Shown here piece by piece: positions 25,402-53,924 of a stretch of 64,000 bases of DNA (positions are counted from its first letter, which is position 1; every line of letters begins with the position of its first letter). Source of the stretch: an uncultured Armatimonadetes bacterium (GTDB lineage Bacteria; Armatimonadota; UBA5829; DTJY01); the NCBI GenBank assembly GCA_963717145.1, contig OY970325.1:1888001-1952000 (forward strand), read 5' to 3'. Under the pieces are notes generated by a model that was not told the origin of the DNA, ran no database searches, and worked only from the letters and a program-made list of their open reading frames with translations. A program made the translations under genes and the position numbers.

Positions 25402-26058
25402 TCACGCCGCCAGCAGACCGCCGGCCGCGATCATCTGGGGCGAGGACTCCGCGCCGAGTTCCGACGCCTTGTTCCCCTGATACCGCACGATGTACGTGTA
25501 GTCCGCCGCCGGACCGCTGATCTCGTCGATGAACGGCGAGGACTTCTGGAACGCAACGTGACTGAATCCGCTCTCGCCGGTCTTCTGCCGATAGATGGCG
25601 CAACCGGTCGCCCAACCAGGCTTCGAGTTGCGCTGCTCGTTGGTCGGATTGCTGCCGAAGTGGACGATGATCGCGCCCGCCCTGCTCTCCAGGAAGATAT
25701 CGGGCACATCCGGTCCGATCGAATTGGTCACCCGCCCGTCGCTCTTCGGGTTGAGCCCGAGCGCGCCCCTGAGCTGGTTTGTCATGCCGGGATGATTGTC
25801 GATGCGGCGCACGAGAGCGCGAAGGGTCGTGACCATCTCCGCGCGCGCGGTGTTCTTGTACTCGGTCGCGGCACGTGCGAGCGCCCGCTTCTGGATATGA
25901 TCGGTGACCCCACTGTCGAACTCGGTCTTATCTTCATCGAGCGCGATGAGATCGCCGGCCACGAGGCCGAACGTGGCCAGTTGGGCCTGGAGAATGGTGA
26001 CGAAATTCGTCATCCATTCCTTCAGAACTGCGTCATTTTTCGGTAAATAGTCGGGCAT
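25402..26058 (-). CDS. Uncharacterised ~220-aa helical + FN3-like protein, paralog A
   Basis: Strong RBS (AAGGAGG), own terminator, clear homology to the genes at 36105 and 53055. Confidence 0.85.
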   Translation of the reverse strand: MPDYLPKNDAVLKEWMTNFVTILQAQLATFGLVAGDLIALDEDKTEFDSGVTDHIQKRALARAATEYKNTARAEMVTTLRALVRRIDNHPGMTNQLRGALGLNPKSDGRVTNSIGPDVPDIFLESRAGAIIVHFGSNPTNEQRNSKPGWATGCAIYRQKTGESGFSHVAFQKSSPFIDEISGPAADYTYIVRYQGNKASELGAESSPQMIAAGGLLAA

Positions 26059-26111
26059 ATAGCCCTCCTTTCCCCCATCAGGGGTACACCCCGGCCGTCT
26101 CGTGGACCGGA

Positions 26112-26342
26112 TCGTCCGTCAAGCCCTCCGATCGAACCGCGAGCCTTCGCCGATGATTCGGAATGCTTAGCGTTCGAAAAGAAATGCCTGGCATTCGAGA
26201 TGATAAGCTTTCCTTTTCGAATTAACCATGGTTATTCCGAGAAGAGATGCTTTCCTTTTCGAATTAACCATGGTTATTCCGATCCGTCAGGCATTCCTTT
26301 TCGAATGAAATGCCTGTGATCCGATCCGCGATATGGTTGTCC
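26112..26342. repeat. Degenerate 21-bp tandem array upstream of paralog A (~11 units)
   Basis: Units in 21-bp phase, e.g. 26175 cgaaaagaaatgcctggcatt, 26217 and 26259 tcgaattaaccatggttattc (identical), 26238 cgagaagagatgctttccttt. Confidence 0.85.
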
Positions 26343-26582
26343 TGGGTGCGCATGCCGGCATAATTACCGGCTGGGTGTTACATCCCATATTGTGGCACTC
26401 TCTTGGGGTTTCTTTAGGGTACAAGGCGGAGAATGCTTGAGGACTTGCAGTTGCGGAGATAAGAATGCGGAATCCTCTGCACCTGAACAGGTGATCGGAT
26501 CGTGCCTGTCTCGTCATGACATACCGGCTGATCGACGAACCGGACCCGGCCTTCATTGCCTCTACCAGTCGACCATTCTGAC

Positions 26583-27476
26583 CTAACCCATGGGCGAACG
26601 GATCCCCTGCCAGACTTGCGTGAACGGCTCACCGGCGTCCACCCGTTTTAGCATCTGAAAGATATCTCTCTCATCCTTCACGTAGCCAAGGAAGGATTCG
26701 TTCTTGTGCGAGGCGAAGTGCTGTTCCATTAGGTCTATGCACTGGTCACATAGCCCTATAGCCTCAGGATCATGAGGGTGCCCATGATCATCGAGAAACA
26801 ACTCTCGACCGGCTTTTAGGTACAGAAGCAGGACAAACTGGAGCATGTTGACAGCCATACCGAATCTGTTCTCGTCAAATCCCAGAGTCAATCCTAGTGG
26901 CTCCTTCTGCCCGTTATTCGCTATGCCGACCATTTCCTCGAGAAAGGAGACCTGGTTTGCGTGAGCCATGAACGACATCACCGCATAGTGTGGCCAGTCC
27001 AGACCCAAGGTCTGCCTCACAAGGTTGCCCAACTGGAACTGCGTAGTGCACTCTCTGCCGCGTCCAAAGCTCCAATGCGGGTCCGCAGGGTGGAGAGTGA
27101 GGAAGACGATCCTCCAGAAACCCTCGTAACTTACCCTGGTCAGGGCCAGGCTATCCTCATAGAAGCCCTTCATAATCCGATCGAAAGAGGAGTAGATCGG
27201 CTTCAGATTGTTAGCCAACAAGACACACTGGAGACTCCGATGAGGAGGCCACGCATCCTTGTTGGCAAAGTTGATCTCATCCACGACTCGCACCAGCAGA
27301 TCAAAGCAGGCCTCAACCTGCATGACGAAGGGATGATAGTTGCCAATCACATACTCAGCATGCTCAAGACCGGCTCTCTGTATGCCTGAGACGATTTCAC
27401 TAGGTATGACCGCCCCGCATACCTCGTCCAGCCTCCGTCTCAATTCTAACATGTCGATCGGATTCCTTGCGTCCAT
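26583..27476 (-). CDS. Hypothetical alpha-helical protein (DUF5677/HEPN-like pattern)
   Basis: GFYEDSLALTRVSYE and YAVMSFMAHAN motifs; visibly lower GC than the flanks. Confidence 0.55.
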   Translation of the reverse strand: MDARNPIDMLELRRRLDEVCGAVIPSEIVSGIQRAGLEHAEYVIGNYHPFVMQVEACFDLLVRVVDEINFANKDAWPPHRSLQCVLLANNLKPIYSSFDRIMKGFYEDSLALTRVSYEGFWRIVFLTLHPADPHWSFGRGRECTTQFQLGNLVRQTLGLDWPHYAVMSFMAHANQVSFLEEMVGIANNGQKEPLGLTLGFDENRFGMAVNMLQFVLLLYLKAGRELFLDDHGHPHDPEAIGLCDQCIDLMEQHFASHKNESFLGYVKDERDIFQMLKRVDAGEPFTQVWQGIRSPMG

Positions 27477-27575
27477 TGCGCTATTCTCCGTGATTCCCTC
27501 CTCGGGATGGCAGCCGTCATGAGGAGATGCTTCTGGGCTTTCTCTTTGGGGTGGAGAGCTCCGCAGGCAGGCAAT

Positions 27576-28496
27576 TCATGGCCGGCTCTGTCGCTCCCAT
27601 ACGTCTTCAGAATCAGGTGAGGAGAGACTACTGCAGTCCTTGTTGAACCTGAGTCTCCAAATCGACCTTCTGTCAAGTAGGTCTATGCGTATGAAGATCC
27701 CATCTGCGAACCCTCCCTGGGCCCATGTGCCCACCGTGTCCTTGCCATCGGCTGAGAACAATATCACCCTTTGCGCGTCTTCGAACGCCACGGATTCGCC
27801 TGTCTGTCGGTTTGTCCAGTAAGTTCCGGGGAGCCATACGGCCAATTCCATCGGTTGGACAGACTCGGGTTCTAGGCCCAAACGAGGCGGGAGTATCTTC
27901 TGCTTTGAGATCACAGTGCCTCTGAGATCTCGCAACTCCTCAAGGACCCGCCCGAGAATCCCTGCTTCCATGTCCCCACCCCTGATAGCCTCGATGGCCC
28001 CCAGTTCGAGTTGCAGTTTGCGGACCAGGGAGTAGCGCTTCTTGTCATCCTTGACGGTCGACTTGAGAGCAGCCTCGAGCGTGCCAATCATGACCTTCAA
28101 CTCAGTCGGCTGGAGCATGTGTGAGTAGATACAAGTAGAGCACTGGTTGAGATCGAAATTGAATTCCGTCACATCATCCTTTATCAGGACGTACTTCTTG
28201 TCGGCGCGGAGTGCCCATCCCAGTTCCAGGTAGACGTTCGGGTTGCTCGCGGAGAGGTCGCAGAGGATGACGTCGGCCTCTTCCAGCTTGCGGCAGATGT
28301 TCTCCGTGATCAGGCGGCTGCCGGAATCCTCGTCATCGCGCTCGCAGATCAGACCCGCCTTCTCGACCGCGGGCATGATGAGGCCCTGGTACACTTCATC
28401 CCAATGCCTGGAGTCCTTATGGTAACGCGCCAGATCCTCTTCCCTCACGGTGAAGGGCATTATGACAAAACACTTCTGCTTCTTGTCGTCAGCCAT
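27576..28496 (-). CDS. Nucleoside 2-deoxyribosyltransferase-like (TIR/NDT-like) domain protein
   Basis: KCFVIMPF and ADVILCDLSASNPNVYLELGWA motifs. Confidence 0.75.
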   Translation of the reverse strand: MADDKKQKCFVIMPFTVREEDLARYHKDSRHWDEVYQGLIMPAVEKAGLICERDDEDSGSRLITENICRKLEEADVILCDLSASNPNVYLELGWALRADKKYVLIKDDVTEFNFDLNQCSTCIYSHMLQPTELKVMIGTLEAALKSTVKDDKKRYSLVRKLQLELGAIEAIRGGDMEAGILGRVLEELRDLRGTVISKQKILPPRLGLEPESVQPMELAVWLPGTYWTNRQTGESVAFEDAQRVILFSADGKDTVGTWAQGGFADGIFIRIDLLDRRSIWRLRFNKDCSSLSSPDSEDVWERQSRP

Positions 28497-28660
28497 GTGA
28501 GCCTCCGCGCGCAGGATCGCCGATGCCGTCGGCATGTCGGTTCATGTTCGGTATATGGGCATCTTTGCGCTATTACATAGATTACGCCTGCGGAGAGGCG
28601 CTGTCAAGTGCCGTATGGGAGCATTAGGGGATAACAAGGTGTCGTCGCGCCCTCATTCGA

Positions 28661-29746
28661 CTACTCGGCGGTGCGTTCGAGGATGATGACGGCTATGTCG
28701 TCGGGGGCGTGGTCGCGGGACCAGCGGCTCGATTCGGAGAGGAGTGCGTGGAGGAGTTCGTCCGGCGGGAGATGACCGTGGTCGCGGAGGGCGCGTTCGA
28801 CTCCGTCCGTGCCGAAGAGGACGCCGTCGTGCCGCGCCTCGGAGATCCCGTCGGTGTAGAAGACGATCTTGTCGCCGGGATTGATGAAGGCGCAGCCCTC
28901 ATTGTACTCAACGGTCGGCATGATGCCGACAGGTAGCTCGCCACCCCCCATCGGCTCAGTCTCATGGGTGTCTCCGCGCCACACAACCGGAGTCGGATGC
29001 CCGCCGGACGCGTACTCCATGTAGCCGGTCGCCGGATCGAGGATCGCGAGGAAGACTGTGACGAATAGACCGGATAGCGGATCGGGCGAAAAGAGCATCG
29101 AATTGGCGAGGCCGAGGGACCTGGATGCACGGGAGCTTTCGTAGGCATAGGCGCGGACGGTGCTCCGCGTGCTGACCGCGAGCGAAGCGCTGGGGATGCC
29201 TTTCCCGGTTACGTCGCCGATGAGCAGACCGATCCGGCCGTCCCTGGTATCGAACACATCGAAGAAGTCGCCGCCGATCTCCACGCCCTCACCGCCGGGG
29301 ATGAAGGTCGTGGCGATACGATATCCCGGCACGGACACCGGCTTCCTTGGCAGAAGCGCCTGTTGGAGGAGATGGACATGCTCAGTCAGTCTCGATGCGA
29401 GACCTTCGATCTTCGCCCTCGCGGCGGCCTCTTCTTCATAGGCCCGAACGTTTTGGACAAACGAGCCGATCATCAACGCGGCGGTCGAAATGGCTCCCAC
29501 ATCGTCCGCGGAGAAAGCGTGCTCCCATGAGCTGGTTACATTCAGGACGCCGATCGTTTGGCCGGCTCCGATAACCGGGATGGTGATGCAGCTTTCGGTA
29601 TCCTGAATCCTCACCTTTGCCACCGGCTCGACCGCTGGGAAAGTGAGAGGCGGAGAGACGAGCATGGAATACGCGCGGTAGAGCGGCTCTTTGATGGAGT
29701 CGGGGATGGGACCGCTCTCGCAGGAGATCACCTCCCACTCGCGCAT
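28661..29746 (-). CDS. GAF + SpoIIE/PP2C serine phosphatase (true start may be upstream across a frameshift)
   Basis: LQQALLP, IGGDFFD, IGDVTGKG, GGHP, FYTDGISEA and DDIAV motifs; IPV....TIGVLNV GAF pattern. Confidence 0.9.
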   Translation of the reverse strand: MREWEVISCESGPIPDSIKEPLYRAYSMLVSPPLTFPAVEPVAKVRIQDTESCITIPVIGAGQTIGVLNVTSSWEHAFSADDVGAISTAALMIGSFVQNVRAYEEEAAARAKIEGLASRLTEHVHLLQQALLPRKPVSVPGYRIATTFIPGGEGVEIGGDFFDVFDTRDGRIGLLIGDVTGKGIPSASLAVSTRSTVRAYAYESSRASRSLGLANSMLFSPDPLSGLFVTVFLAILDPATGYMEYASGGHPTPVVWRGDTHETEPMGGGELPVGIMPTVEYNEGCAFINPGDKIVFYTDGISEARHDGVLFGTDGVERALRDHGHLPPDELLHALLSESSRWSRDHAPDDIAVIILERTAE

Positions 29747-30083
29747 CTGCAGACCGATGGCAGCGGTGCTCGAGGGGAACTGACTGCCGATGAGACGGAG
29801 GGCATTCAGTACCCTCGCGCGCCAGTCATGAATGCCGGCAAGCCCGTTCGGCGATGTCGGCGAGCATTCCCGTGAGGGAAGTCGGCGGTCTAAGTTGGGA
29901 TCGCGCCGGTTGCATGATGGTTACTCACTGAATGGTAACTCACGCCCCAGGGATACTTACACAGAGGGCATGGGCACTTCCACACTCTTGTATACCGATA
30001 CTCCTGCCGCGCGAAACATCCCCATGACACCTGCATCAGCGTTCAGGGGTATGCGCAACAGCCACGGGCCTCCCTCAATCTCG

Positions 30084-30509
30084 CTAGGAAACCTCAGAGG
30101 TGCAACTCGCGCACTTCGTCGCCTTCTCAGGGATCGAGGAAAGGCAATACGGGCACTCCTTGACCGCTGCGACGGGAACAGGCGGCTTCATCTTGTTCAC
30201 TTGCCTGATCACGAGGAAGATCGCAAACGCCACGATGATGAAGTCGATCATCGAGTTGATAAACACCCCGTAGGCGATGACCGGCGCACCGGTGGCCTGG
30301 GCATCCGCGAGAGTGGCGTAGCCCTCCCCGGAGAGATCGAGGAACATGCCGCTGAAATCGACCTTGCCAAGCAGCAGTCCGATGGGCGGCATAAGGACAT
30401 TGGCCACAAACGTCGTGACGATCTTGCCGAACGCAGCGCCGATGATGATGCCTACCGCGAGATCGATGACGTTTCCTCGCGCGATGAACTCCTTGAACTC
30501 CTTGAACAT
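30084..30509 (-). CDS. mscL: Large-conductance mechanosensitive channel with C-terminal zinc ribbon
   Basis: [39 protein letters not shown]-terminal CPYC...CASC. Confidence 0.95.
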
Positions 30510-30604
30510 TCCGATCGCCTCCTGTCTCGATGGTTGCTTTCTGATCCTGCTGGGAGTTGTGCGCAGGTTACATACCCACATTCTCGGACGATTACCCCAT
30601 GGCA

Positions 30605-30690
30605 GGGATGGAGGTGGATGCTGAATCAAGTTCAGCATGACGCTACCCGATACGTCATGCTGAACTTGATTCAGCATCCACCTCCATCCC
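30605..30690. repeat. Perfect inverted repeat (GTCATGCTGAACTTGATTCAGCATC family)
   Basis: 38-bp arms with a 10-bp spacer. Confidence 0.9.
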
Positions 30691-30696
30691 CGCCAT

Positions 30697-31869
30697 CTAG
30701 ACGACTGACGGGCTCTTCGGCAGGGAGATGGTGAACTGCGTGCCGTCGGGTTCGGCGCTGATGAATGAGACTTGGCCCTGCAGGTATCGCTCCCCGATCA
30801 GCTTGACACTGTACGTGCCGATTCCACGGCCGATGCCTTCCTTCGTGCTGAAGGACCGCTGGTAGATCTGCTCCTGCACATCCTCGGGCATTACGCCGGG
30901 ATTCCCGACAACGAAGTCCACGTTCTCGCCGCAGTCATATGCAGCAAGGGATACCGTCCCGCCCGATGGAGTCGCTTCGAGCGCATTCTTGACCAGGTTG
31001 GAGAGGACTCGTTGCAGGAGGAGCGCATCCGTGATGATCTCGATGTCGGGCGCGTTGAGAACGGCGATCTTCTTGTTCACGGAGAGGTCACAGTAGCGAT
31101 AGATGGTCTCGATCGCCTCCACTATGTCCGCGACCCGGACCCTGTCGAACTGAGGACGTAGATCGCCGCGCTCGGCGAGAAGCAGTTGGCGATGGCCCGC
31201 GAGTTCGTCGGATATCTGAACGGCGGCTCTGTAGAGGAATTCGCGCAATTCCTTATCGGTCTCAGCCCCCGAACTCCGATTCCGAAGCGATTCGGCGATC
31301 GATCGCAGCCCGAAGACCGAGTTCGTGAGGTCATGGAAGAAGACGCGTTCGAGGACGGCTCGCCTTCGATCCGCGCTGATGTCGCGCATATGCAGGACGG
31401 CGTAATCATGATCGCCCGCACTCACGGGTGTGACTTGTACAAACACATCGAGGGCGCCGCCGTCCTTGTCGCTGTTGGTGCTGATCCGACACTCCTGACC
31501 GGCGATCTTCCCTCGAACGAGGCAGTCGACGATCGCCTGGCCCGCGCCGCAGTATCGGCACGCTTTGCTCGTGCCGCAACCGGCGGGCATCTCGTCGGCA
31601 TGGATGCAGCTCAGGAGTTCGCCGGGTCGCATCCCGATCATCTCCTCGATGCTCTTCATCCCAAGCATGCTGAGCAGAGTCGAGTTGGCGATGATGATCT
31701 GGCGGGTCTCGTAGAGGACCATCGCGGGCTCGGGAACTGCATCGAGTAGACGGACGGCGACGTGGCTGGCGATGAAGGTCTTCCTCACTGCCCAGAGGAC
31801 CTCGCTATCGGCCCTTTCGGGACTGGCGAAGTAGGTGTCACGCGACTCCTCATTCGTCTCATCTTGCAT
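30697..31869 (-). CDS. PAS-domain sensor histidine kinase
   Basis: FFHDLTN H-box, [10 protein letters not shown]-box, FSTK..GRGIG G-boxes; Cys-rich PAS (C....GCG...C..C). Confidence 0.9.
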
Positions 31870-32017
31870 GCTGAATCCCCCCAATCTGCGCTGAGATGGC
31901 GGTACACTTCGTACATTATACACCGCTTCGGCCACATCCGCTATGATATTCTGGTTTGGGTTCAGCACAGGGTCTGGAGGGCCGGCTCTGAGCTGCAGGG
32001 CGAACGCATCAAAACAC

Positions 32018-32119
32018 AACGATGCTTCGGTAGCAGAGGCCCGGCGGCGCTGCCGAAGCATGTCACGACACCGTGGTGCTTCGGTAGCGCCGCCGGGCCT
32101 CTGCTACCGAAGCATCGTT
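32018..32119. repeat. REPIN-like inverted repeat (copy 1 of 2)
   Basis: gatgcttcggtagcagaggcccggcggcgctgccgaagca and its reverse complement; a near-identical element is at 49895-49996. Confidence 0.9.
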
Positions 32120-32223
32120 CTCCCGAATCGAGACGATTAGATGCGTTCGCCCTGCTCTGAGCTGCCTTACCTATTGACAAATTGGCGTTTATGTGGGATA
32201 GTAATGTACGGGGGTAACGACAA

Positions 32224-34329: not shown

Positions 34330-34337
34330 TTACTGAT

Positions 34338-34424
34338 GGGAGTAGTGGAGCATTGGAGCATTGGAGCATTGGAGTACTGGGGTCCGGACCCCAGTACTCC
34401 AATGCTCCAACACTCCAATGCTCC
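34338..34424. repeat. Hairpin built of inverted octamer repeats (TGGAGCAT)n
   Basis: ggagcattggagcattggagcattggagtactggggtccggaccccagtactccaatgctccaacactccaatgctcc. Confidence 0.85.
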
Positions 34425-34456
34425 GTTTCTCGGTTCCCGAAGGAGGTCGTTCACCG

Positions 34457-34651
34457 ATGGCATGCCCGAACACCGACACGAATATGAGTTCCTGCACGTG
34501 CAGCTACCCCGGATGCGCCCGCAAGGGAAACTGCTGCGAGTGTCTTCGATACCATCTGAGCAACAATGAGCTTCCGGCCTGCGCGTTCCCGGCCGACGTG
34601 GAGAAGACCTACGACCGCTCATTCCGCCGCTTCGCGCAGATATACAAGTAG
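34457..34651 (+). CDS. Small Cys-rich protein (DUF6485-like)
   Basis: MACPN...CTCSYPGCARKGNCCECLRYH....LPAC.F...EKTYDRS; AGGAGG RBS. Confidence 0.8.
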   Translation: MACPNTDTNMSSCTCSYPGCARKGNCCECLRYHLSNNELPACAFPADVEKTYDRSFRRFAQIYK

Positions 34652-34659
34652 CAGCGCGG

Positions 34660-35780: not shown

Positions 35781-35985
35781 TGTCATTCTGAGCGCAGCGA
35801 AGAATCTGGCCGGGCCCAGACAGATTCTTCGCTGCGCTCCTAAGGAAGCCCACACCGTCAGTCCTGAGTGCGCCTCTGGGCGTGTAACGAAGGACGGCCT
35901 TACTCCACCGAGCCGTCCTTCGTTACATGCCGTCCCTTCGACAGGCTCAGGACAGGCATTCACCGGCATACTCAGGACTAGCGGT
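35781..35985. repeat. Compound palindromic cluster (TGTCATTCTGAGC element + GTCCTGAG element + CCCTTCGACAGGCTCAGG insert)
   Basis: tgtcattctgagcgcagcgaagaatct...agattcttcgctgcgctc, followed by ccgtcagtcctgag...ctcaggactagcgg. Confidence 0.8.
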
Positions 35986-36006
35986 GTTTGCTTCCGGTGT
36001 GACGAA

Positions 36007-36042: not shown

Positions 36043-36104
36043 CGGTATTCCATGTTGGGTCATCGGGCATGAGTGACCCCACCCAACATCACTATCCTGT
36101 TTCC

Positions 36105-36767
36105 CTACGCCGCCGCCTGCAATCCGCGCGCTGCCACGGTCGCCTCGGCCGACGGCGCGGAGATATCCGTCTGTTTCGCCCCGCGATATCGGACGTAGTA
36201 CGTATAGTCCGACCCACTACCAGTGATCTCGTCGTAGTAGGGAGATCTAGTCGCCAGGCCGATCACCTGGAAGTCGGTCTCCCCGGCCTTCTTGCGATAG
36301 ATCGTCGCTGCCATCACGCCCGCCGGCTTGCCGTTCGTGTTCTCCTTCGATGGATTCGGGCCCCAGTGAACCGTCACCTGGCCGATCTTCGACTCCAGGT
36401 ACATCTTCGGCGTAAGCTCCGTGATCGGGAGCGGCATATCCTGAACGTACTGAGGCACGAGGCCGAGCAGGCTACGAAGCGCATCGGTCATGCCCGGATG
36501 CTTCTGGATGCGCTGAACGAGCGGGCGGAGGACGTCCTCGGAATCGGTGCGGCTGGTGACCTTCGCGGAGGTCGTGCTCTTCGCGAGACTCCTCTGCAAG
36601 AGGGCCGCCGCATACTTATCGGTGAAATCGGCCGACGCGGTTGTGATCGGCGTCAGGTCCGCCGGCAGAAGACCGACCATCCCTGCGTTGGTGGTCAGCA
36701 TCGCCACGAAATTGGCGAGCCATGCATCGTAGTCATTGTCACTTGGTGGATAATACGTCTTTCCCAT
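36105..36767 (-). CDS. Uncharacterised ~220-aa helical + FN3-like protein, paralog B
   Basis: GAGGTG RBS; shares LR.LV.RI..HPGMT..LR..LGL, VH.G.NP..E..N.KP and DYTY.VRY.G with paralog A. Confidence 0.85.
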   Translation of the reverse strand: MGKTYYPPSDNDYDAWLANFVAMLTTNAGMVGLLPADLTPITTASADFTDKYAAALLQRSLAKSTTSAKVTSRTDSEDVLRPLVQRIQKHPGMTDALRSLLGLVPQYVQDMPLPITELTPKMYLESKIGQVTVHWGPNPSKENTNGKPAGVMAATIYRKKAGETDFQVIGLATRSPYYDEITGSGSDYTYYVRYRGAKQTDISAPSAEATVAARGLQAAA

Positions 36768-36816
36768 GCTTTATCACCTCGTCTGGATGCTAAGCCGACT
36801 GTCTGCCGCCACGGAT

Positions 36817-36963
36817 ATGACCTGCGATGCAGTGTCTATGAGTCTCCATGCAGCGTCTATGAGCCTTCATGCAGCGTCTATGACTCTCGATGCAGAGTCC
36901 ATGACTCTCCAAGCAGAGCTGCTCAGAACGATCGCAGAGCTGCTCCGCTCTTCCGGATCGCTG
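36817..36963. repeat. Degenerate 21-bp tandem array upstream of paralog B (7 units)
   Basis: ATGA recurs at 36817, 36838, 36859, 36880 and 36901; units such as atgagtctccatgcagcgtct and atgactctcgatgcagagtcc. Confidence 0.9.
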
Positions 36964-37210
36964 CACGGCGGCTGATCCACGCGGATCGGGCCTCGTCGGA
37001 GAGCGAACTCCCCGCCCCGGCTCATTCCCCGGCACTATTACCGGGTCAGCGGCCTGCACCACATATTCTTGGATTCGGGATCATGAATCTTTAGGGCCAC
37101 TAGCACTTGAGGGAAATCTTTTTCAAGATGCGATCGTGATGAGGATGAACGGCGGACCCCCTCTCCGCTGCGGGGAGCGCCGGGGAGGGGTGTTCCGGTG
37201 TTGGGTGATG

Positions 37211-37260
37211 GGTGTCAGGTGTTCGATGTTGGGCGTTCGATGTTCGATGTTCGATGTTCG
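37211..37260. repeat. Heptamer tandem repeat (TTCGATG)n
   Basis: gtgttcgatgttgggcgttcgatgttcgatgttcgatgttcg. Confidence 0.75.
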
Positions 37261-44251: not shown

Positions 44252-44273
44252 AGGTTTCTCCCTCAGCAAGGTA

Positions 44274-44553
44274 CCGTCTAGTCCTGAGTAGTCCTGATGA
44301 ATGGCAAGACGTAACGAAGGACGGTCGGGCCTGCACTAAGGTTGGTGCTCCGTAGGCCGCCCTTCGTTACATGCCGTCATTCACCGGCACACTCAGGGCT
44401 GACGGGCTTTCTCTGTGTCCTCTGTGCCTCTGTGGTTGAATGGCCGCCCTTCGTTACATGCCGTCATTCACCAGCACACTCAGGGCTAACGGGTTTTCAC
44501 TCCCATACTCCCATTCTCCATTCTGACTTCTGACTCCTGACTGCTGACTCCTC
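44274..44553. repeat. Compound repeat cluster (GTCCTGAG element with duplicated arm, 9-mer, octamer and heptamer tracts)
   Basis: ggccgcccttcgttacatgccgtcattcacc.gcacactcagggct.acggg occurs twice; ctctgtgtcctctgtgcctctgtggt lies between the copies. Confidence 0.8.
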
Positions 44554-46659: not shown

Positions 46660-46715
46660 ACGAGCGAGTATACCGGTCGGGCCGCCGGTCGGTCAAGATG
46701 AGGACGCCCCGCGCT

Positions 46716-46780
46716 GTCATTCTGAGCGAAGCGAAGAATCTCGCCTTCCGAACAGATCATTTGCTCCGCTCAGAATGACA
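46716..46780. repeat. TGTCATTCTGAGC-type palindrome
   Basis: tgtcattctgagcgaagcgaagaatct...agatcatttgctccgctcagaatgaca. Confidence 0.85.
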
Positions 46781-46928
46781 GCCGGGGAGGTCTGTCAACA
46801 GGTAAATTTACCAGTTTTTCGCAGATTCGTGGACGAGTTGCTTTTTTGGCTGTATAATGCTTGTAGTTCGATCAGCTTTGTGCGAGGTTTCACACACTCG
46901 CCAGCGAGATCGCACCAAGGAGAAAGAG

Positions 46929-47621
46929 ATGAAGAGAGCCATTCCAGTACTTCTTGCCGTATTCATGCTTGCGACAGCCACAGTATCTGCAGACCAGACC
47001 AGTTGGCGCGTGCTCATGAAGGCCGACAACGGCGCCGGCGGATACGCCGGCCCAGGCGCCTATGTCGGCGTCTATCCGACTTCCCTGGAAGGCCTGGACG
47101 CTGAAGACCATCCACCGTATTCAGGCTTCTTCGTGGATACGCCGGGAAATCAGGTGCATCTGGTTACGCTTGTTCCTGGTGATGGCGTAACTTCGCACAA
47201 CATAAAGGCGCCTACTCTTCCTGTACCTGAGAAAACGTGGGACCTTTATGTCGGAGCCAACGTAGACTACCAGTTCCCAACAATCGGTTTGCGTGCGTAT
47301 GCCGTCACTGCCAGGCAAACCCCCACTTTTGACGGCATCCCTGTCTCATACTATGTGAGGATGGCAGACAACAAGGGCGTCACCGGCGCACCCGCAAACG
47401 GCACCATGTGGGAACTTCCCATGCCCACCACTAACGGTCAGTTCTGGACGTCGCCAGTCAACCTACCGGTCATAAAGCTGTCGGCAGGTAGCAATGCGGC
47501 ACTGCTCGCAGAAGGTTATAAGCTGCAGTTCGTGCAGAAGGCCGTCCCCGAGCCGAGTGGACTGCTCGCACTCGGCGGGTGTCTTGTCGGCCTTGCAAGT
47601 TTTTTCCGGCGGCGCAAATAG
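46929..47621 (+). CDS. PEP-CTERM surface protein
   Basis: Signal peptide MKRAIPVLLAVF; VPEPSGLLAL + TM + RRRK; promoter TGGACG-17-TATAAT at 46830-46858. Confidence 0.88.
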   Translation: MKRAIPVLLAVFMLATATVSADQTSWRVLMKADNGAGGYAGPGAYVGVYPTSLEGLDAEDHPPYSGFFVDTPGNQVHLVTLVPGDGVTSHNIKAPTLPVPEKTWDLYVGANVDYQFPTIGLRAYAVTARQTPTFDGIPVSYYVRMADNKGVTGAPANGTMWELPMPTTNGQFWTSPVNLPVIKLSAGSNAALLAEGYKLQFVQKAVPEPSGLLALGGCLVGLASFFRRRK

Positions 47622-47742
47622 TTGTTTACCGGATATCGCACCTCAGGCGATAAAGAATACTGAGGGCGCGGGGTTGTGCGCTCGCAGAATTGTGGTATAA
47701 TCGAGTCAGCAATACCAAATCCAGCCGAAAGGAGGCAGTGCA

Positions 47743-47814
47743 GTGAGATACAGAGTCTACATTTACCGAAGAAGTGAAGTACATTGCCCGCCTCGTTTCG
47801 GCTCGTCTGGATGA
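47743..47814 (+). CDS. Putative 23-aa leader peptide MRYRVYIYRRSEVHCPPRFGSSG
   Basis: AAAGGAGG RBS then GTG; downstream of extended -10 TGGTATAAT (47693-47701) and upstream of a terminator. Confidence 0.5.
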   Translation: MRYRVYIYRRSEVHCPPRFGSSG

Positions 47815-47842
47815 CAATCGGGTTCTCTTTCTGAGACCACTT

Positions 47843-47876
47843 CGGGCCGCGGGCAATGAGTCTGTGGCCCGTTTTG
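47843..47876 (+). terminator. Attenuator-like terminator upstream of the ECF sigma gene
   Basis: CGGGCCGCGGGC-aatga-GTCTGTGGCCCG-TTTT; its three G-U pairs form only on the + strand. Confidence 0.6.
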
Positions 47877-47898
47877 CGTTTCCAGGAGAGAAGAACCG

Positions 47899-48408
47899 AT
47901 GAATTGCTGTATACAAAGTGCGAGAGATGGCGACCAGACCGCCAGAGAAGACCTGGTGGACAGACTTCGCCCTCGAATAGCGAGCATGGCCGGACACTAC
48001 GCGAGATGCACCGGCGAAGACCCTGATGACCTGCTTCAGGAAGCATGGGTCGGCCTGCTCGAAGCGCTCCCCGAACTGAACATGCACATCGGCAGCCCGG
48101 AGCAGTACCTCATCCGGCATGCCCGCTGGCGTCTGCTCGATGCGGTCAAGCACGCCCGAATCCGGCGATGTCTGCCGCTGGAGGACCAGGCGGGCGACGA
48201 CATCCCCCACCCCGAATCCGCGGTCGAGTCCGCGTTCGTCTCCGAATTCGCCGGACGCCTGAAGGAATCCCAGCGCGCGGTGCTCGGATGCCTGCTCGAC
48301 GGCCTGACGTGGCGGGAGGCCGGTCGCGCGCTCGGATGCACGTCGGCGAACGTGGCGTATCACGTGCGCCAGATCAAGCGGCGGTATGAGGAATGGACTG
48401 GGGAGTAG
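47899..48408 (+). CDS. sigma-70 family (ECF-like) RNA polymerase sigma factor
   Basis: DDLLQEAWVGLLEA region 2 motif; GLTWREAGRALGCTSANV region 4 HTH. Confidence 0.85.
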   Translation: MNCCIQSARDGDQTAREDLVDRLRPRIASMAGHYARCTGEDPDDLLQEAWVGLLEALPELNMHIGSPEQYLIRHARWRLLDAVKHARIRRCLPLEDQAGDDIPHPESAVESAFVSEFAGRLKESQRAVLGCLLDGLTWREAGRALGCTSANVAYHVRQIKRRYEEWTGE

Positions 48409-48502
48409 GCGAGTATGGGAGTGTGGGAGTATGGGAGACCGGAATCCGGCACCCCCAGACTTCCATACTCCCGTACCCCCACACTCCCACACTCCCATAC
48501 TC
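48409..48502. repeat. Inverted octamer repeats (GAGTATGG/CCATACTC)
   Basis: gagtatgggagtgtgggagtatgggag ... ccatactcccgtacccccacactcccacactcccatactc; the same unit occurs at 8158-8185. Confidence 0.8.
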
Positions 48503-48752
48503 CTTTACCACCCGCCTCCGCCCGCTCTACACAGTTCATGGAGGCATGCAACGAAATCTTGCCTCCAGAAGGAGGTGGGTGATATGTGGGTCTATGAATC
48601 ACCCGCCCCCGGAGCAGGGCGCCGGTAGTCCCGTACCGGGAATTGCTCCCGCCGCCGGGACTTCGGTCCCGGCGGTCATTCTATCAAGAATGAATGGCGT
48701 TAAGTCATGCCGAACTCTCCTGTAACGAACCATTGGCAGGAGGAGCAAATCG

Positions 48753-49892
48753 GTGATGACACGACGCAACATTTGGATCGGGCTGCTGCTTGCTGTCTGG
48801 CTGACGGCCGGATCAGCGGCGGCACAATCGGACCGGACCTATCCCGAGGTGGGACCCGGTCTCACTTATGTCCATGAGCGGATCGGGGACGTACCCTGGG
48901 CGATCCACATCCTCAAGATAGATCGGCAGGAGGATTTCCGACTCATATCGAGCCTGGCGCAGGGCACTATCTACGGACTCGCCGGGATCAGCAAGCACGT
49001 GGGCGCTGTGCCCTCAGAACTCGGGACGCCGGTTGCCGCGATCAACGGCGACTTCTACCGGATAGCTTCGGGTCCCTATCAGGGCGACCCGAGCGGCCTG
49101 CAGATCGTGCAGGGAGAACTGGTGAGCGCTCCAATAGGTCCGAGCTTCTGGATAGACGCGCGGGGCAAGCCGCAGATCGGCGATGTCCAGCCGCAGATGA
49201 AGGTCACATGGCCGGACGACAGCACGACTCCGATCGGGCTGAACGAGGAGCGCAAGGACGATGCGGCCGTCCTCTACACGCCGATACTCGGGGCGTCGAC
49301 TCGAACCAAGGGCGGGCGGGAGATGGTCCTGGAACGCGTTGCCGGCGAACCGTGGCTGCCGGTCCGTCCCGGTCTGACATACAGCGCCCGTGTGCGTGAG
49401 GTGAAGGACAATGGCGATACGTCGCTGTCGCCGGACACCATGATTCTGTCCGTCGGGCCGAATCTCGTGAACGCGCCGGCCGTTACGGTAGGCGACGTGC
49501 TCCGGATCACGATGGCGACATCACCCGACCTGACCGGAGTGGATGTGGCGATCGGCGGCCATCCGATCCTGGTCGCCGATGGTAAACGAGTTCCGTTCGG
49601 CCCAGGCGATCCCCGTCACCCGCGCACGATAATCGGCTGGAACTCGCGCTATCTGTACTTCGTGGTTGTGGATGGCAGGCGGAGTGACCTCTCCGCTGGG
49701 ATGACGAATGCGGAGATGGCGTCGCTCATGCGACGACTCGCATGCACCGACGCGATGAACCTCGACGGCGGAGGGTCATCTACCTTCTGGCTCGGCGGTC
49801 GAGTGATGAACGTCCCTTCCGACGGTCGCGAGCGAGGGATCGCCAACTCCCTGATCCTGCTGCGCAAACCGGCAGCTCCCGCGGTCAACTAA
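48753..49892 (+). CDS. Phosphodiester glycosidase (NAGPA/DUF2233-like) family protein
   Basis: AAINGDFY, RHPRTIIG, VVDGR and AMNLDGGGSS motifs. Confidence 0.9.
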   Translation: MMTRRNIWIGLLLAVWLTAGSAAAQSDRTYPEVGPGLTYVHERIGDVPWAIHILKIDRQEDFRLISSLAQGTIYGLAGISKHVGAVPSELGTPVAAINGDFYRIASGPYQGDPSGLQIVQGELVSAPIGPSFWIDARGKPQIGDVQPQMKVTWPDDSTTPIGLNEERKDDAAVLYTPILGASTRTKGGREMVLERVAGEPWLPVRPGLTYSARVREVKDNGDTSLSPDTMILSVGPNLVNAPAVTVGDVLRITMATSPDLTGVDVAIGGHPILVADGKRVPFGPGDPRHPRTIIGWNSRYLYFVVVDGRRSDLSAGMTNAEMASLMRRLACTDAMNLDGGGSSTFWLGGRVMNVPSDGRERGIANSLILLRKPAAPAVN

Positions 49893-49894
49893 CT

Positions 49895-49996
49895 ACGATG
49901 CTTCGGTAGCAGAGGCCTGGCGGCGCTGCCGAAGCATCGGACGGTAAGACATGATGCTTCGGCAGCGCCGCCAGGCCTCTGCTACCGAAGCATCGT
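49895..49996. repeat. REPIN-like inverted repeat (copy 2 of 2)
   Basis: Same arms as 32018-32119 with a different spacer. Confidence 0.9.
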
Positions 49997-50029
49997 CCTC
50001 GAGTTCGCTCGGGCATCAGGAAACATGGG

Positions 50030-50059
50030 TTGACATAATGTCCGGCGATAAAGTATACT
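50030..50059 (+). promoter_or_regulatory. sigma70-type promoter
   Basis: TTGACA-18 bp-TATACT. Confidence 0.65.
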
Positions 50060-50112
50060 ACCCCAACACAGCGCTTGCATGGCGTTGTGACTCTGCGAAA
50101 GGGGGACGAGAC

Positions 50113-50187
50113 ATGGCACGCAATCAGCATCAGCGCTGCAATAGTATGCAGCAGGCAAACGCACGTCCCCCGGTGGTCGTAGAGTAG
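50113..50187 (+). CDS. Putative 24-aa leader peptide MARNQHQRCNSMQQANARPPVVVE
   Basis: AAAGGGGG RBS; lies between the promoter and tandem terminators; contains an RPP motif. Confidence 0.5.
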   Translation: MARNQHQRCNSMQQANARPPVVVE

Positions 50188-50212
50188 CTCACCGATCTCA
50201 GTTTCGCGATTC

Positions 50213-50288
50213 AGAGGCCGCTCCACTACCGGGAGCGGCCTCTTTGTTTTTCATGGAGGCCGTGGGAGAGTTCCCTCGGCCTCTTTTT
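50213..50288 (+). terminator. Two tandem terminator-like hairpins in the leader
   Basis: AGAGGCCGCTCC...GGAGCGGCCTCT-TTGTTTTT and GAGGCCG...CGGCCTC-TTTTT. Confidence 0.7.
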
Positions 50289-50382
50289 CGTTAGGATTGA
50301 ACTTTTCGGCCCCCGAAAAGCGTCAACTATATGTATGGGCAAGCTCTGGGACGGCTTGCTCGATCGCGGAGAGGAGAATATA

Positions 50383-52368
50383 GTGTCGTATATCATCCGT
50401 ACAACCGGCCTGGGTTTCATCCTGGCATCGCTCATCTGCATGCCAGTCGGACGCGCGCACGCCCAGCAACCGGTCATCAAGGCCGTTATGGCCGAGTGCG
50501 CGCCGAATATCGATGGCGACATCTCCGATGCATGCTGGCAGTCAGCCTCTCAGGTCAACGACTTCTTCTTCGTCAACGACAGCTCGAAGGCCAAGGAGCC
50601 GACGACCGCCTGGCTCTGCTACGACCAGAAGTGCATCTACATCGCCTTCAAGTGCCTGGACTCCGATCCCACGAAGATCGTCGCCCAGCAGAAGAAGCGC
50701 GGCGGAAGCCTCGACAGCGACGACTGGGTCGGCTTCAACCTCGACTGCTACGGTGACTTCAAGAAGATCGTCTGGTTCGACGTCTCGGCGGGCGGCGTGC
50801 AGGTCGAGAGCCTCCAGACCGGCGAGGCGAGCAAGATCGAGTGGAAGGGCGACTGGGCAGGCGGTGCGAAGAGGATCGACGGCGGGTACACCGCCGAGTT
50901 TGCCGTCCCGTTCTCCATCATCCAGTATCGCCCCGAGCAAACGAAAATGGGGATCGCGTTCATCCGACGCCACGCGCGGACTCAGCAATGGTGGTGGTCG
51001 CCGAATATCGGCCCGAACGGCGACAGCGCGCGGTTCTACTCCTGGGAGGGTCTCAACCTGCCCCGCCGGAGCAATCGGCCGATGGTGCTGGGATACTCGC
51101 TCTTCGGCACGGGGTCGGACGCGCCTCACAAAGTGGGACTCGACGTCAGGCACGCGATCACGCCGAGTCTGAACGGTCTCGTAACGATCAACCCGGACTT
51201 CAGGAGTATCGAGCAGCAGGTGGACAGCGTGGACTTCTCGTACACCGAGCGGTACCTGTCCGACAGCCGGCCGTTCTTCCTCGAGGGCCCGAGCTACTTC
51301 CCGCAATCGAACGTGCTATACACCCGCCGGATACAGGATGTGGATGTCGGGACGAAGCTCTCCGGCAAGGTCGGCGACTATGACCTGGCATTCATGCACA
51401 CGCAACTTTTTGGCAAGGAGAACCACACCGTACTGCAGATGGGCCATCACTGGTCGGATCGCGCGTCACTCTGGCTCTGCGGAATCGAGAGCAACGTGCC
51501 GGGCCTCAACAACGGCGTCACCCTGACATCGTTCCGGCAGCGGCTGAAGAAGGCCGGCGTCCACCAATGGTGGTTCTCCTCCAACTACGCGACCGCCACC
51601 TCGGCGTCCGGGCCGGGAATGGGTACGTGGTTCCGCGCTCACGTGTACGACTTCGGGAAGCCCAGGGAGATCCACTGGGACCTGAACTACGAGACTTTCG
51701 ACTCCGATTACGATCCGTATCTGGGACTGGTGGGCGAGAAGGATCGGAGGAGTCTGAGCCTCTCATTCGATCTGAGTGATCAGCCGAGCAAGGGCTCTAT
51801 CCAGAGCTGGTACACCGCTCTGGACCTGGGAAAGACAGACCATCTCGACGGATCGCTCTTCCACAACGACATAGGGATATACGGTGAGCTGTCCCTGCGC
51901 AAGGGGACCGGCTACTGGGTAAACGCGTCCATGTCAGACAGGCCGCCCTACCACGATTCCGTCTCTCGAGCAGGCTACTACTGGGGGTCGAATGACCTCT
52001 ACAAGGGTGGGAGCATCGGCCTCGGAATCGGCAGGCAGGCGGGAGGAGACTACCGCTACTGGTCGATCGGGCAGGGCTGGCCGATCGGGGACAAGCTGAG
52101 CGTCCAGGCGTCATATGAGTCCGCGAGCATCAGCGATCCGAGCCCGGATGCGTTCAGCTCGCACCAGATCGTCGCATCGGCGGCATACGATTTGGACAAC
52201 GAAAGGACCATCGGCGCGCGTCTAATAGACAGAGAGGGCAAGGCGAACCTCTATCTCGCCTACAAGCAGAGAGTGAGCGCCGGCTTGGACGCATACGTGA
52301 TCTTTGGCGACCCGAACGCGGACTCCACGCGGAGCACGGTCACCATCAAGCTGAGCCGGCTGCTGTAG
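50383..52368 (+). CDS. CBM9-like + DUF5916-like secreted/outer-membrane protein
   Basis: PNIDGDISD..W, YTAEFAVPF, TINPDF..IE, RPFFLEG and YTRRI motifs; GAGGAG RBS with GTG start. Confidence 0.8.
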   Translation: MSYIIRTTGLGFILASLICMPVGRAHAQQPVIKAVMAECAPNIDGDISDACWQSASQVNDFFFVNDSSKAKEPTTAWLCYDQKCIYIAFKCLDSDPTKIVAQQKKRGGSLDSDDWVGFNLDCYGDFKKIVWFDVSAGGVQVESLQTGEASKIEWKGDWAGGAKRIDGGYTAEFAVPFSIIQYRPEQTKMGIAFIRRHARTQQWWWSPNIGPNGDSARFYSWEGLNLPRRSNRPMVLGYSLFGTGSDAPHKVGLDVRHAITPSLNGLVTINPDFRSIEQQVDSVDFSYTERYLSDSRPFFLEGPSYFPQSNVLYTRRIQDVDVGTKLSGKVGDYDLAFMHTQLFGKENHTVLQMGHHWSDRASLWLCGIESNVPGLNNGVTLTSFRQRLKKAGVHQWWFSSNYATATSASGPGMGTWFRAHVYDFGKPREIHWDLNYETFDSDYDPYLGLVGEKDRRSLSLSFDLSDQPSKGSIQSWYTALDLGKTDHLDGSLFHNDIGIYGELSLRKGTGYWVNASMSDRPPYHDSVSRAGYYWGSNDLYKGGSIGLGIGRQAGGDYRYWSIGQGWPIGDKLSVQASYESASISDPSPDAFSSHQIVASAAYDLDNERTIGARLIDREGKANLYLAYKQRVSAGLDAYVIFGDPNADSTRSTVTIKLSRLL

Positions 52369-52383
52369 GAGCAGGCAATCCTT

Positions 52384-52412
52384 TTGCATTGCAGACGCCT
52401 GCGTGCTACAAT
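52384..52412 (+). promoter_or_regulatory. sigma70-type promoter
   Basis: TTGCAT-17 bp-TACAAT with extended -10 TG. Confidence 0.55.
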
Positions 52413-52442
52413 CGAAACACCGAATAACTCAGGAGGTACAGT

Positions 52443-53036
52443 ATGGGACATCCGGGTTCGGGACCGTACAATCCACCCAAGTCGGGCAACAACACGACCG
52501 TCATCATCGTGGTCGCAGTCGCACTCTTGGGATTCATCTTCATCGCCGCCATCCTGGCGGCGATCCTCTTCCCCGTCTTCGCGAGGGCTCGGGGGAAGGC
52601 GCAAGAGTCCGTCTGTATGATGCACATGCAGCGGCTCGGATTGGCGATGAACGCATACAGGGCGAACTGGGGCGATACCTACCCGCCGCCGGGTAACTGG
52701 AACGATCTTCTGGCGACGTATACGAAGGAACCTGAAGTCTTCCTGTGCCCGTCCGCCAAAAGCGCCAAGCCTGGTTACGGGATGAACAGCGGGCTGTCCG
52801 GCATTCAAGCAAAGGCCGTCAAGTACCCGGGCGCTACGATCATGTTCTTTGAGACTGAACCCGGCGAGAACAAGGCGGGAGGGTCAGCACTGCTCCTCAG
52901 CCAACCGAGACACATGGGCCGATGCGGCATTAGTGTCGTGGACGGACGCATCATGATGGTCGAGCAGACGTCGGTGAGCGCTCTGAACTGGGACCCTGCC
53001 CCGAAGACCGCGCCAACGTTGCCCACGCGTCCATGA
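52443..53036 (+). CDS. Pilin/pseudopilin-like protein (DUF1559-like)
   Basis: AAILAAILFPVFARAR..A....C......LGLA...Y, FLCPS, and H-x9-DG C-terminal motif. Confidence 0.8.
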   Translation: MGHPGSGPYNPPKSGNNTTVIIVVAVALLGFIFIAAILAAILFPVFARARGKAQESVCMMHMQRLGLAMNAYRANWGDTYPPPGNWNDLLATYTKEPEVFLCPSAKSAKPGYGMNSGLSGIQAKAVKYPGATIMFFETEPGENKAGGSALLLSQPRHMGRCGISVVDGRIMMVEQTSVSALNWDPAPKTAPTLPTRP

Positions 53037-53054
53037 TCCGATACCTGGACTCGG

Positions 53055-53732
53055 TTACGCCGCTTTCTCGTGCGTCTGCAGGCCCATGACCGCCACCGTC
53101 TGCTCCGGGGAGTCCGGGCCTTCGTCTCCGTTCCTGCGGCCACGGTATCTGACAGCGAAGGTCATGATCGCGCCTTCGCCATGAACCCGATACAGGTAAG
53201 GCGATGAGGTCGCGAAGTCAAGCATGCGGAAGACCTCGTCGCCGGCCTTTTTCACATAGATATTGCATCCCAGCGCCCATTTCGGCTTCCCGTTCCGAAG
53301 CTCGTTCGCCGGCGCAGTGCCGAAATGCACGACGACCATGTTGCCCACCACTTCCAGATGGAGCGCCGGAGCCTCTTGACCGACTTCCCGCCTCACGCGC
53401 CCCTTATTGACGGCCTTTAGCCGCATCGCCCCGCGCATCTCGTCCGTGACCTGCGACTGGGAGCTGATGAACCTCACCAACGGACGTACGTGCGCTTCGA
53501 AGGTCGTCCGGGCCGTCTTCTTGCGCAGGACGGCCGCCTTTGCGAGCCTCTGTTGCGTCTGATGATTCTCCAGGGCGGCCACGAACTCCGCTCGATCCCC
53601 GGCCAGGAACGCCACTTGCTCGGGCGACAGCCGCAGTTCGTCGAGGTGAGACATGACGTAGCCCTCCAGGTTTCCGATCCAGCTCTTCACATCTTCGTCG
53701 TTGACAGGAATGTAATCGTCTTTCCGCGCCAT
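53055..53732 (-). CDS. Uncharacterised ~220-aa helical + FN3-like protein, paralog C
   Basis: AAGGGAG RBS; DYIP.ND...W..N, RPLVR.I, VHFG..P.NE.RNGKP.WA.GC.IY, SSPY and VRYRG motifs shared with A and B. Confidence 0.85.
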   Translation of the reverse strand: MARKDDYIPVNDEDVKSWIGNLEGYVMSHLDELRLSPEQVAFLAGDRAEFVAALENHQTQQRLAKAAVLRKKTARTTFEAHVRPLVRFISSQSQVTDEMRGAMRLKAVNKGRVRREVGQEAPALHLEVVGNMVVVHFGTAPANELRNGKPKWALGCNIYVKKAGDEVFRMLDFATSSPYLYRVHGEGAIMTFAVRYRGRRNGDEGPDSPEQTVAVMGLQTHEKAA

Positions 53733-53756
53733 GACACGTGCTCCCTTCAGTTAGTC

Positions 53757-53924
53757 GTTCCAACCGGCGGCGGGATCGGTCCGCTCGGCAGCGGGTCCGT
53801 TCCCCTCGTCAGCGGGAACGGACCCGCTGGCAGTTGGAACACCCCTGCCGAGAGAGGGACCGGGCCGACTCTCAGTGGGAATGGCCCCCCTCAAGGGTGG
53901 ACCATTCCCATTATCGGCGGGCTT
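53757..53924. repeat. Degenerate 21-bp tandem array upstream of paralog C (8 units)
   Basis: Units such as gttcccctcgtcagcgggaac and ggacccgctggcagttggaac; CC at unit positions 4-5 and GG at 17-18 in all eight. Confidence 0.85.

Follow-up and report, generated by a model that had tools for sequence, protein, structure and literature searches.

The iterons of Rep-type replication origins (R6K, RK2, P1, F and pPS10) are direct repeats of ~19–22 bp that lie about two helical turns apart, are specific to their own protein and also serve in autoregulation, and the sopC/SopB system of the F plasmid has repeats of 43 bp. In plasmid R1, the parC iterons are bound by ParR (PMC2241845). Plasmid centromere arrays of this kind are promoter-side tandem repeats that are specific to the protein encoded beside them, with related systems diverging in specificity. 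Type III toxin–antitoxin loci (toxIN, cptIN and tenpIN) combine a promoter, a tandem array private to its protein and a gene, with published repeat units of 31–62 nt in 1.9–5.6 copies (PMC3401426). Here we describe a module, found in a 64,000-nt window (the whole stretch of DNA analysed) of contig OY970325.1 from an uncultured Armatimonadetes bacterium with a genome of 5.37 Mb, that resembles these systems in principle and fails to qualify as a type III toxin–antitoxin pair, a ParR/parC partition locus or an iteron/Rep origin. Three genes in the window each follow an array with a 21-nt period, and our analysis confirmed and generalised this pattern: the cassette is conserved, and its protein, a widespread and unannotated helix-plus-FN3 type predicted to dimerise, is paired copy by copy with a private, helically phased array beside a promoter-like motif. 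The array looks like an undescribed control element.

An earlier, sequence-only reading of this DNA had proposed three dispersed paralogous open reading frames (ORFs), and these are present, all on the minus strand, at 25402..26058 (module 1; 218 aa, with a predicted N-terminal helical dimerisation domain and C-terminal FN3 domain), 36105..36767 (module 2; 220 aa) and 53055..53732 (module 3; 225 aa). All three belong to one subfamily, A, of which the module 3 protein is a divergent member, and the other two proteins align with the module 1 protein over their full length at 38% and 36% identity. The alignment also returned the shared motifs that had been noticed by eye, with invariant columns in the N-terminal part (Y4, P6, D9, W15, N18; R80, L82, V83, I86), the later part (V132, H133, G135, P138, E141, N144, K146, P147; I155, Y156, K159, G161, F165) and the C-terminal part (S174, P175; V191, R192, Y193, G195). 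The module 1 array (26149..26317, minus strand) comprises ~8 units of 21 nt, built from two alternating hairpin-prone 21-mers (e.g. GGAATAACCATGGTTAATTC), and was called by Tandem Repeats Finder (TRF) at 26196–26306 with a period of 42 and 2.6 copies; the upstream autocorrelation at lag 42 is 0.70. In module 2 the array (36814..36941, minus strand) has ~6 units of the CATAGACGCTGCATGGAGACT type (TRF 36816–36918, period 21, 4.3–4.4 copies; lag-21 autocorrelation 0.72). The module 3 array (53752..53909, minus strand; TRF 53765–53840, period 21, 3.6 copies; lag-21 autocorrelation 0.62) has ~7.5 units of 21 nt, each made of a 12-nt GGGNNC..G..TCCC-type dyad core and a 9-nt spacer, and adjoining units can be exact reverse complements; it begins directly after the -10-like box and stops ~20 nt before the ATG. 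Extents beyond the TRF calls are degenerate units written in the 21-nt register. Arrays of 21-nt units thus stand at all three genes, but the 7–11 units originally counted in each were generous, and the proposed spacing of 25–55 bp before the ATG suits modules 2 (47 nt) and 3, whereas the module 1 array lies farther away (122 nt by the array caller, ~90 nt for the full extent).

A profile built from the three window proteins identified 25 family copies in this genome, all intact ORFs of 215–227 aa beginning with M..DY.P..D...W, and a second profile built from all 25 found no further copies there. They form two subfamilies, A (L001–L010, including the three window genes) and B (L011–L025, with the C-terminus SATIAA). 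Only W14, R79, P118, P146 and A210 are invariant over the family alignment, and conservation within subfamilies peaks in the FN3 domain (47–51% identity) and drops to its minimum (~30%) in the linker and over the N-terminal half of the long helix. We scored an upstream region as periodic where its top autocorrelation lag was 21, 42 or 63 at a value of at least 0.5. By this measure, 16 of the 25 own copies were periodic (22 when lags 20–22 and 41–44 are counted). Homologs in four further genomes of this taxonomic family were periodic at 18/19 loci, and more remote homologs from across the phylum at 14/24, whereas control upstream regions taken from crude ORF calls in the own genome were so in 23/1497 cases. 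The enrichment of period-21 flanks over random genes that had been predicted for homologs was therefore found, and the suggested pairing of each protein with its own array recurs in related genera and across the phylum, with units private to each copy. The gene–array pairing is old.

The converse expectation, that such arrays would not be equally common before unrelated genes, held against the controls. Long arrays, meaning those of at least 90 nt with a period of 20–24, 41–48 or 63, number 50 in the own genome. Of these, 20 begin or end no more than 650 nt ahead of a paralog, and 19 of the 25 paralogs have one there; among the remaining 30 are glycine-rich coding repeats, REP-like (repetitive extragenic palindrome-like) hairpin families and some ten orphans of similar style beside unrelated genes. 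Orphan 21-nt arrays of 6–9 units in the style of the family were found at genome positions 895089, 1161107, 1189080, 1285229 and 4826975. Two orphan 21-nt arrays lie directly upstream of putative secreted protein genes, and the unit at 895089 (TACACGCCGTGTA..) has half-sites in common with the L009 unit (TACACCGGGTGTA..). Family arrays range in length from 3.6 to ~14 units and have periods of mostly 21 and 42 nt, with a few at 22, 24, 41, 43 and 44, which fits two or four turns of B-DNA. Among metagenome homologs, 11 were called with an N-terminal extension, and 5 of the 11 extensions show 7- or 14-residue repeats (SEKVRLV, LLIDVQP, HHRKVVV, GGVVALP). These represent upstream arrays that gene callers read through, and as such are an independent sign of arrays in metagenomes.

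Upstream of most copies, and always on the gene strand, we found a promoter-like motif, CTnnAGA-N16-CnATAAT(A/G). Its strict form occurs five times in the genome, four of them upstream of paralogs; with a position weight matrix (PWM), 18 of 40 genome-wide matches at 18 bits or more belong to the family, a count that is circular because the matrix was trained on the family itself. Within the window, putative promoters on the minus strand lie at 26388..26420 for module 1 (CCCTAAAGA, 17 nt, ACAATA; a consensus match) and 37064..37098 for module 2 (CCCTAAAGA, 17 nt, AAGAAT), both upstream of the array, and at 53909..53942 for module 3 (CTCCAG.., GCCGATAATG; PWM score 30.2 bits). A small conserved hairpin, CCGGTAAT(T/A)(A/G)TGCCGG, is located between motif and array in modules 1 (26346..26372) and 2 (37024–37048), also on the minus strand, and occurs in one clade of subfamily A, in which it is present across genera (also at L035, L038 and L041). 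The order of parts differs between the subfamilies. In subfamily A, the motif is followed by the array and then the ribosome-binding site (8/10 own copies, and also L033, L035, L038, L039, L042, L045, L049 and L055), whereas subfamily B copies begin with the array, which stops some tens of bases short of the motif, and the motif lies 41–320 nt before the ATG (13/15 own copies, with the same order in L027, L030, L047 and L053). Downstream of the array, every copy has a Shine-Dalgarno sequence and opens with the conserved M..DY.P..D.

The sequence-only reading had stated that the arrays share no sequence, and this extends well beyond the window: among the array pairs compared, three alone match at 15–16 of 16 bases, and these belong to proteins that are 93–96% identical (L034/L036, L028/L029 and L015/L017). 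Conserved cores nevertheless stand out against variable centres or spacers within single arrays (L064, L045, L029, L049), and old, degenerate arrays keep fixed conserved blocks (L071, L061). L002 and L045, which come from different genera and encode proteins only 43% identical, have a common GGGA..TCCC-type core in the same layout; a core related to that of module 3 occurs in L045. Constant cores amid variable spacers, together with the survival of one core type at 43% protein identity, suggest that the arrays are read by sequence. Internal dyad symmetry, initially claimed for all three window arrays, is common but not universal, as the unit consensus beats shuffles (no more than 5/100 as good) in 14 of 42 arrays. 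The shuffle test shows it clearly for module 2 (stem 10, loop 3; 4/100 shuffles as good), and in modules 1 and 3 it is seen by inspection only, as inverted neighbouring units. For 15 of the 42 arrays, the best unit dyad is a palindrome with a centre of 0–1 nt, which as RNA cannot fold on itself unless the next unit is borrowed.

We also considered, and rejected, a trans-acting regulon marked by the units: when array units of the own genome were searched against it with BLAST, further copies turned up only for L024 and partly for L020, along with cross-matches between the near-identical arrays of L015 and L017. Copies of the 43-nt unit of L024 were returned at genome positions 546484–546977 and 1805399–1805652. 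This one unit is arrayed at three loci, 459592–459915, 546374–546997 and 1805383–1805672, in 7.5, 12 and 6.7 copies. The first is the one locus of the three that precedes a family gene (L024), and two units resembling those of the L020 array are also present at the second.

The family protein had no significant assignment in Pfam, PHROGs, NCBIfam or PADLOC, the best sub-cut-off matches in the last three being MvaT/MvaU (E 0.13) and PQLLE (E 0.0068), and the Pfam fn3 model did not match it. As modelled with AlphaFold2 (mean predicted local distance difference test score (pLDDT) 90.8, predicted template modelling score 0.48), the module 1 protein has helices at residues 8–24, 33–86 and 93–99, then a poorly conserved linker, and a beta sandwich at residues 119–211 that can be superimposed on solved FN3 domains (Foldseek: 2dn7, E 1.3e-5; VIA-align: 5z06_B, Z 11.5, root-mean-square deviation 2.2, 91 residues aligned, with many FN3 entries at Z 10–11). 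The model thus agrees with the helical and FN3-like architecture first proposed from the letters alone. Folded by itself, the N-terminal domain reached a pLDDT of 95.7, and fold searches with it returned no informative neighbour, with a best Z of 6.5 among generic helical hairpins and nothing in Foldseek at E of 0.001 or less. Prediction of a two-copy complex scored 0.72, against 0.51 for the best control; among proteins of solved structure, this mark was attained by 20 of 30 that are pairs and by 1 of 23 that are single chains. Contacts agreed between runs at 90% or more, with a partner pLDDT of 86. The predicted interface is an antiparallel packing of the long, 54-residue helices (residue 46 with 70, 60 with 60), which supports a symmetric homodimer. 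From the helix length, its two FN3 domains would be ~75 Å apart, near one 21-bp period (71 Å).

Among the three modes proposed earlier, namely a phased DNA platform, a hairpin-ladder RNA bound by the protein and a source of short RNAs, the first fits best, and for processing into 21-nt RNAs the sequence offered no support. We tentatively favor a private, helically phased, operator- or iteron-like DNA platform, most simply bound by the neighbouring protein, as a possible explanation that still falls short of probable. A role at the DNA level is favored because the array stays beside the promoter-like motif on either side of it and because the periods are multiples of 10.5; an element that keeps its place on either promoter side is easier to understand as DNA than as an mRNA leader. 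The cassette would comprise the promoter-like motif, the private array, a ribosome-binding site, the ~220-codon gene and a terminator. Acting as DNA, the array would provide a phased row of binding sites beside the promoter, which a sequence-specific factor would occupy cooperatively, and this factor would most simply be the symmetric dimer encoded alongside. Each paralog would in this way gain an insulated feedback or cis-anchoring circuit, with no cross-talk with the other 24. The neighbour genes of the 25 copies include no recurrent family, and those in the window are unrelated, so that no conserved neighbour is available to supply another dedicated array binder. In sum, the promoter role of the motif, the occupation of the array, the neighbouring protein as its occupant and the effect of binding on expression are all inferred.

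Several observations weigh against a DNA platform bound by its own protein. The isoelectric point is below 7 in 18 of the 25 copies, which is unusual for nucleic-acid-coating proteins, and neither the Pfam, NCBIfam and PADLOC searches nor the fold searches returned a recognisable DNA- or RNA-binding domain. A significant dyad is limited to the 14 unit consensuses mentioned above, with L014 and L016 lacking any, and similar-style orphan arrays lie upstream of unrelated genes (e.g. at genome positions 1161107 and 1189080). The motif is taken for a promoter by its match to a consensus and through a family-trained matrix. Finally, arrays of proteins that are 67–73% identical are already unrelated, falling outside the 25 most similar unit pairs, and such turnover would be expected equally from co-evolution with a binder and from a structure-only element that drifts freely.

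This last point leads to a competitor that we consider doubtful, in which the array is a sequence-independent DNA element, a bent or cruciform-prone tract, or one whose unit number drifts, that tunes or switches the adjacent promoter in the manner of a contingency locus, giving each of the many paralogs independent expression, and would need no cognate binder. Complete replacement of array sequence at 67–73% protein identity, with period and place kept, is what such an element would be expected to show, and unit number does vary (10.8 vs 10.1 by the array caller) between 96% identical family members from two genomes within a single genus. The acidity of most proteins, the orphan arrays of the same style, the presence in several arrays of one A-tract per unit (e.g. 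GAAAAGT) and the occurrence of both promoter-side arrangements are also consistent with it. However, it does not explain why one gene family keeps arrays across a phylum when 98% of controls lack them, and the constant cores beside variable spacers, the core type kept at 43% protein identity and the fixed blocks still present in L071 and L061 also speak against it. Alternatively, the array could be transcribed into a 5' hairpin ladder that sets mRNA stability or translation and is possibly bound by the encoded protein, which we consider unlikely overall, and which could apply only to the subfamily with the array between motif and gene. There, the array does lie between the promoter-like motif and the ribosome-binding site, reaching the Shine-Dalgarno sequence itself in module 3 and L045, and leaders are far more structured than their shuffles (z of -6.96 for the module 1 fold). 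G-U pairing in the sense strand keeps stems intact in some arrays (L042, -87.4 vs -47.9 for antisense; L035, -85.4 vs -65.5), and subfamily A has a slight sense-strand purine excess (AT skew positive in 17/24, p 0.07; GC skew in 16/24, p 0.04). Yet the sense strand is the more stable in 25 of 42 arrays and the antisense in 17, with no consistent bias and with antisense strongly favored in L016, L014, L012, L036 and L044; many dyads are loop-less, no Rfam match at gathering score fell on an array in the loci searched, and in 13/15 own copies of subfamily B the array lies upstream of the motif. In the window, Rfam returned one tRNA only at gathering score, and at E of 0.1 or less its matches at 8 loci were sub-threshold, microRNA-precursor-like hits to long hairpins downstream of the genes, none of them in arrays. 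A sponge or leader of the CsrA/Rsm type was rejected on GGA counts, which show no enrichment over TCC (75 vs 77 in subfamily A arrays, 82 vs 82 in B).

Two further explanations have little probability. A type III-like pair, in which the array would yield a repetitive antitoxin RNA, cut into units, that counteracts the protein, is very improbable, even though subfamily A resembles toxI–toxN in its order of promoter-like motif, tandem array and gene, the arrays are private and co-diversifying, and the family is multi-copy and patchy. While upstream tandem repeats are present, the ToxN/AbiQ/CptN/TenpN endoribonuclease fold is absent, the protein being a predicted helical dimer with FN3 domains, with no PADLOC or Pfam match and no catalytic-type residue among its five invariant positions. 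Relative to the published type III loci, the family's 21-nt units are shorter and, at up to ~14 copies, more numerous, and the subfamily B array lies outside the presumed transcript (PMC3401426). No terminator-like site, such as the short palindromic terminator that type III loci have between array and gene, was found in the three window modules by a simple scan, which also missed the terminator after the module 1 gene. Translation of the arrays as heptad-repeat leader peptides or N-terminal extensions is more improbable still. Periods of 21, 42 and 63 are divisible by three, arrays are often stop-free, and gene callers at times join them to the gene in one frame, with open frames of 261–371 aa in 7 of the 25 own copies, in addition to the extended metagenome proteins. 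But this is not a general answer, because 8 of 42 arrays have periods (22, 41, 43, 44) that are not multiples of three and because subfamily B arrays precede the motif; moreover, every copy has its ribosome-binding site and start after the array, and the peptides implied by the arrays share nothing, as the sequence-only reading had already remarked.

With respect to plasmid partition, the comparison with ParR/parC is an analogy only. The family is neither of the ribbon-helix-helix kind, its model being all-helical N-terminally with no beta-ribbon, nor ParB-type, and no actin-like or other motor NTPase gene is found near the 25 copies. These copies are also chromosomal, with no plasmid match, and their unit is 21 or 42 bp. 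From iteron/Rep origins the module differs in having no Rep_3/winged-helix fold and no replicon context, in the many units that are dyads rather than direct repeats, and in the dozens of copies per chromosome.

The family is large and patchily distributed. A word-indexed search returned 146 proteins, all unnamed or "hypothetical", with Planctomycetota, Phycisphaerales and Planctomycetaceae metagenome-assembled genomes (MAGs) as named sources, and an exhaustive profile search yielded 6172, 3333 and 481 representatives of clusters made at 50% identity, at E of 1e-3, 1e-10 and 1e-30, respectively. Among 41 sampled relatives, 6 encode the family, including the own genome; it is present in 5/10 other genomes of the same taxonomic family and 0/30 from other families of the class. 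Phylum-wide, at a stricter E of 1e-15, it was detected in 36/401 genomes, often in multiple copies. Distant members retain the N-terminal domain, while the C-terminal part drifts past the profile. The module 2 protein had no homolog in phage records, plasmid records or IMG/VR contigs, and a single-protein scan of genome contigs found one locus, in a Planctomycetota MAG. Look-alike clusters of 212–234 aa in the ESM Atlas, from Spirochaetota, Bacteroidota and Planctomycetota, serve as a lead only. No description of the module was found in the full text of open-access papers and bioRxiv.

Additional features accompany the modules. Hairpins followed by T-runs, resembling intrinsic terminators, come after the module 1 and module 2 genes (for module 1 at 25345..25386 on the minus strand, directly after the stop codon), because of which both genes look monocistronic, as that of module 1 probably is. 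Downstream of the same two modules, at 25040–25200 and ~35790–35990, is a long near-perfect palindrome (core ..GTAACGAAGGACGGC..GCCGTCCTTCGTTAC.., flanks AGTCCTGAG/CTCAGGACT); its core occurs at 62 genome loci, and as only two of these adjoin family genes, we regard it as a separate, dispersed repeat similar to REPs or miniature inverted-repeat transposable elements. Directly upstream of the module 2 promoter-like motif, at 37188–37260, lies a further array, made of a heptamer that reads TGTTCGA on the plus strand; its period is 7, although it was called at 21 as well, and it differs in kind from the module's own array. Paired blocks of 7–8-base repeats with near-complementary halves, e.g. GGGAGTAT x4.6 then CACTCCCA x6.8, are found at 8091–8186, 34346–34424, 44411–44552 and 48401–48503, and would give long periodic hairpins in intergenic DNA; genome-wide, TRF reported 272 period-7 and 189 period-8 rows. 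Such arrays, similar to short tandemly repeated repetitive sequences with 6–8-base units, are likewise intergenic tandem repeats able to pair into hairpins, but have units of 7–8 nt, are not tied to one family and often follow stop codons, whereas the family's 21/42-nt arrays lie 5' of the gene. Converging on module 3 is the gene of a 197-aa protein (52443–53036, plus strand) whose hydrophobic N-terminal segment is prepilin-like and for which Pfam gave no match at E 0.001. Most of the 25 paralogs terminate in -AA (e.g. at 25402–25410), as SATIAA in subfamily B and ..LLAA or ..LQAAA in subfamily A, similar to the own genome's SsrA tag GTNSYALAA. A C-terminal degron was nonetheless rejected, this reading being weak because distant homologs have different C-termini, finishing in -PG, -AG or -AL.

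Overall, a large family with no Pfam model, annotated only as "hypothetical", proves to be accompanied by a very regular non-coding signature beside a bacterial gene. We think it somewhat doubtful, if conceivable, that its members form a new class of sequence-specific nucleic-acid binders, in which antiparallel coiled-coil dimers would hold their FN3 domains about one 21-bp period apart and polymerise on private, helically phased arrays. Were this true, a single genome would contain about two dozen mutually orthogonal protein–array pairs, with thousands more in metagenomes, and the family would represent a naturally occurring library of circuits, insulated from one another, for cis-regulation or the marking of loci, which may extend over several phyla. 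Should the arrays go unread by their proteins, they would be a new, structure-only promoter accessory whose long retention beside one gene family would itself need explanation. If the protein does read its own array, it would constitute a new DNA- or RNA-binding architecture, supply orthogonal protein–site pairs for synthetic regulation, and offer a clean system for the co-evolution of specificity among many paralogs in one cell.

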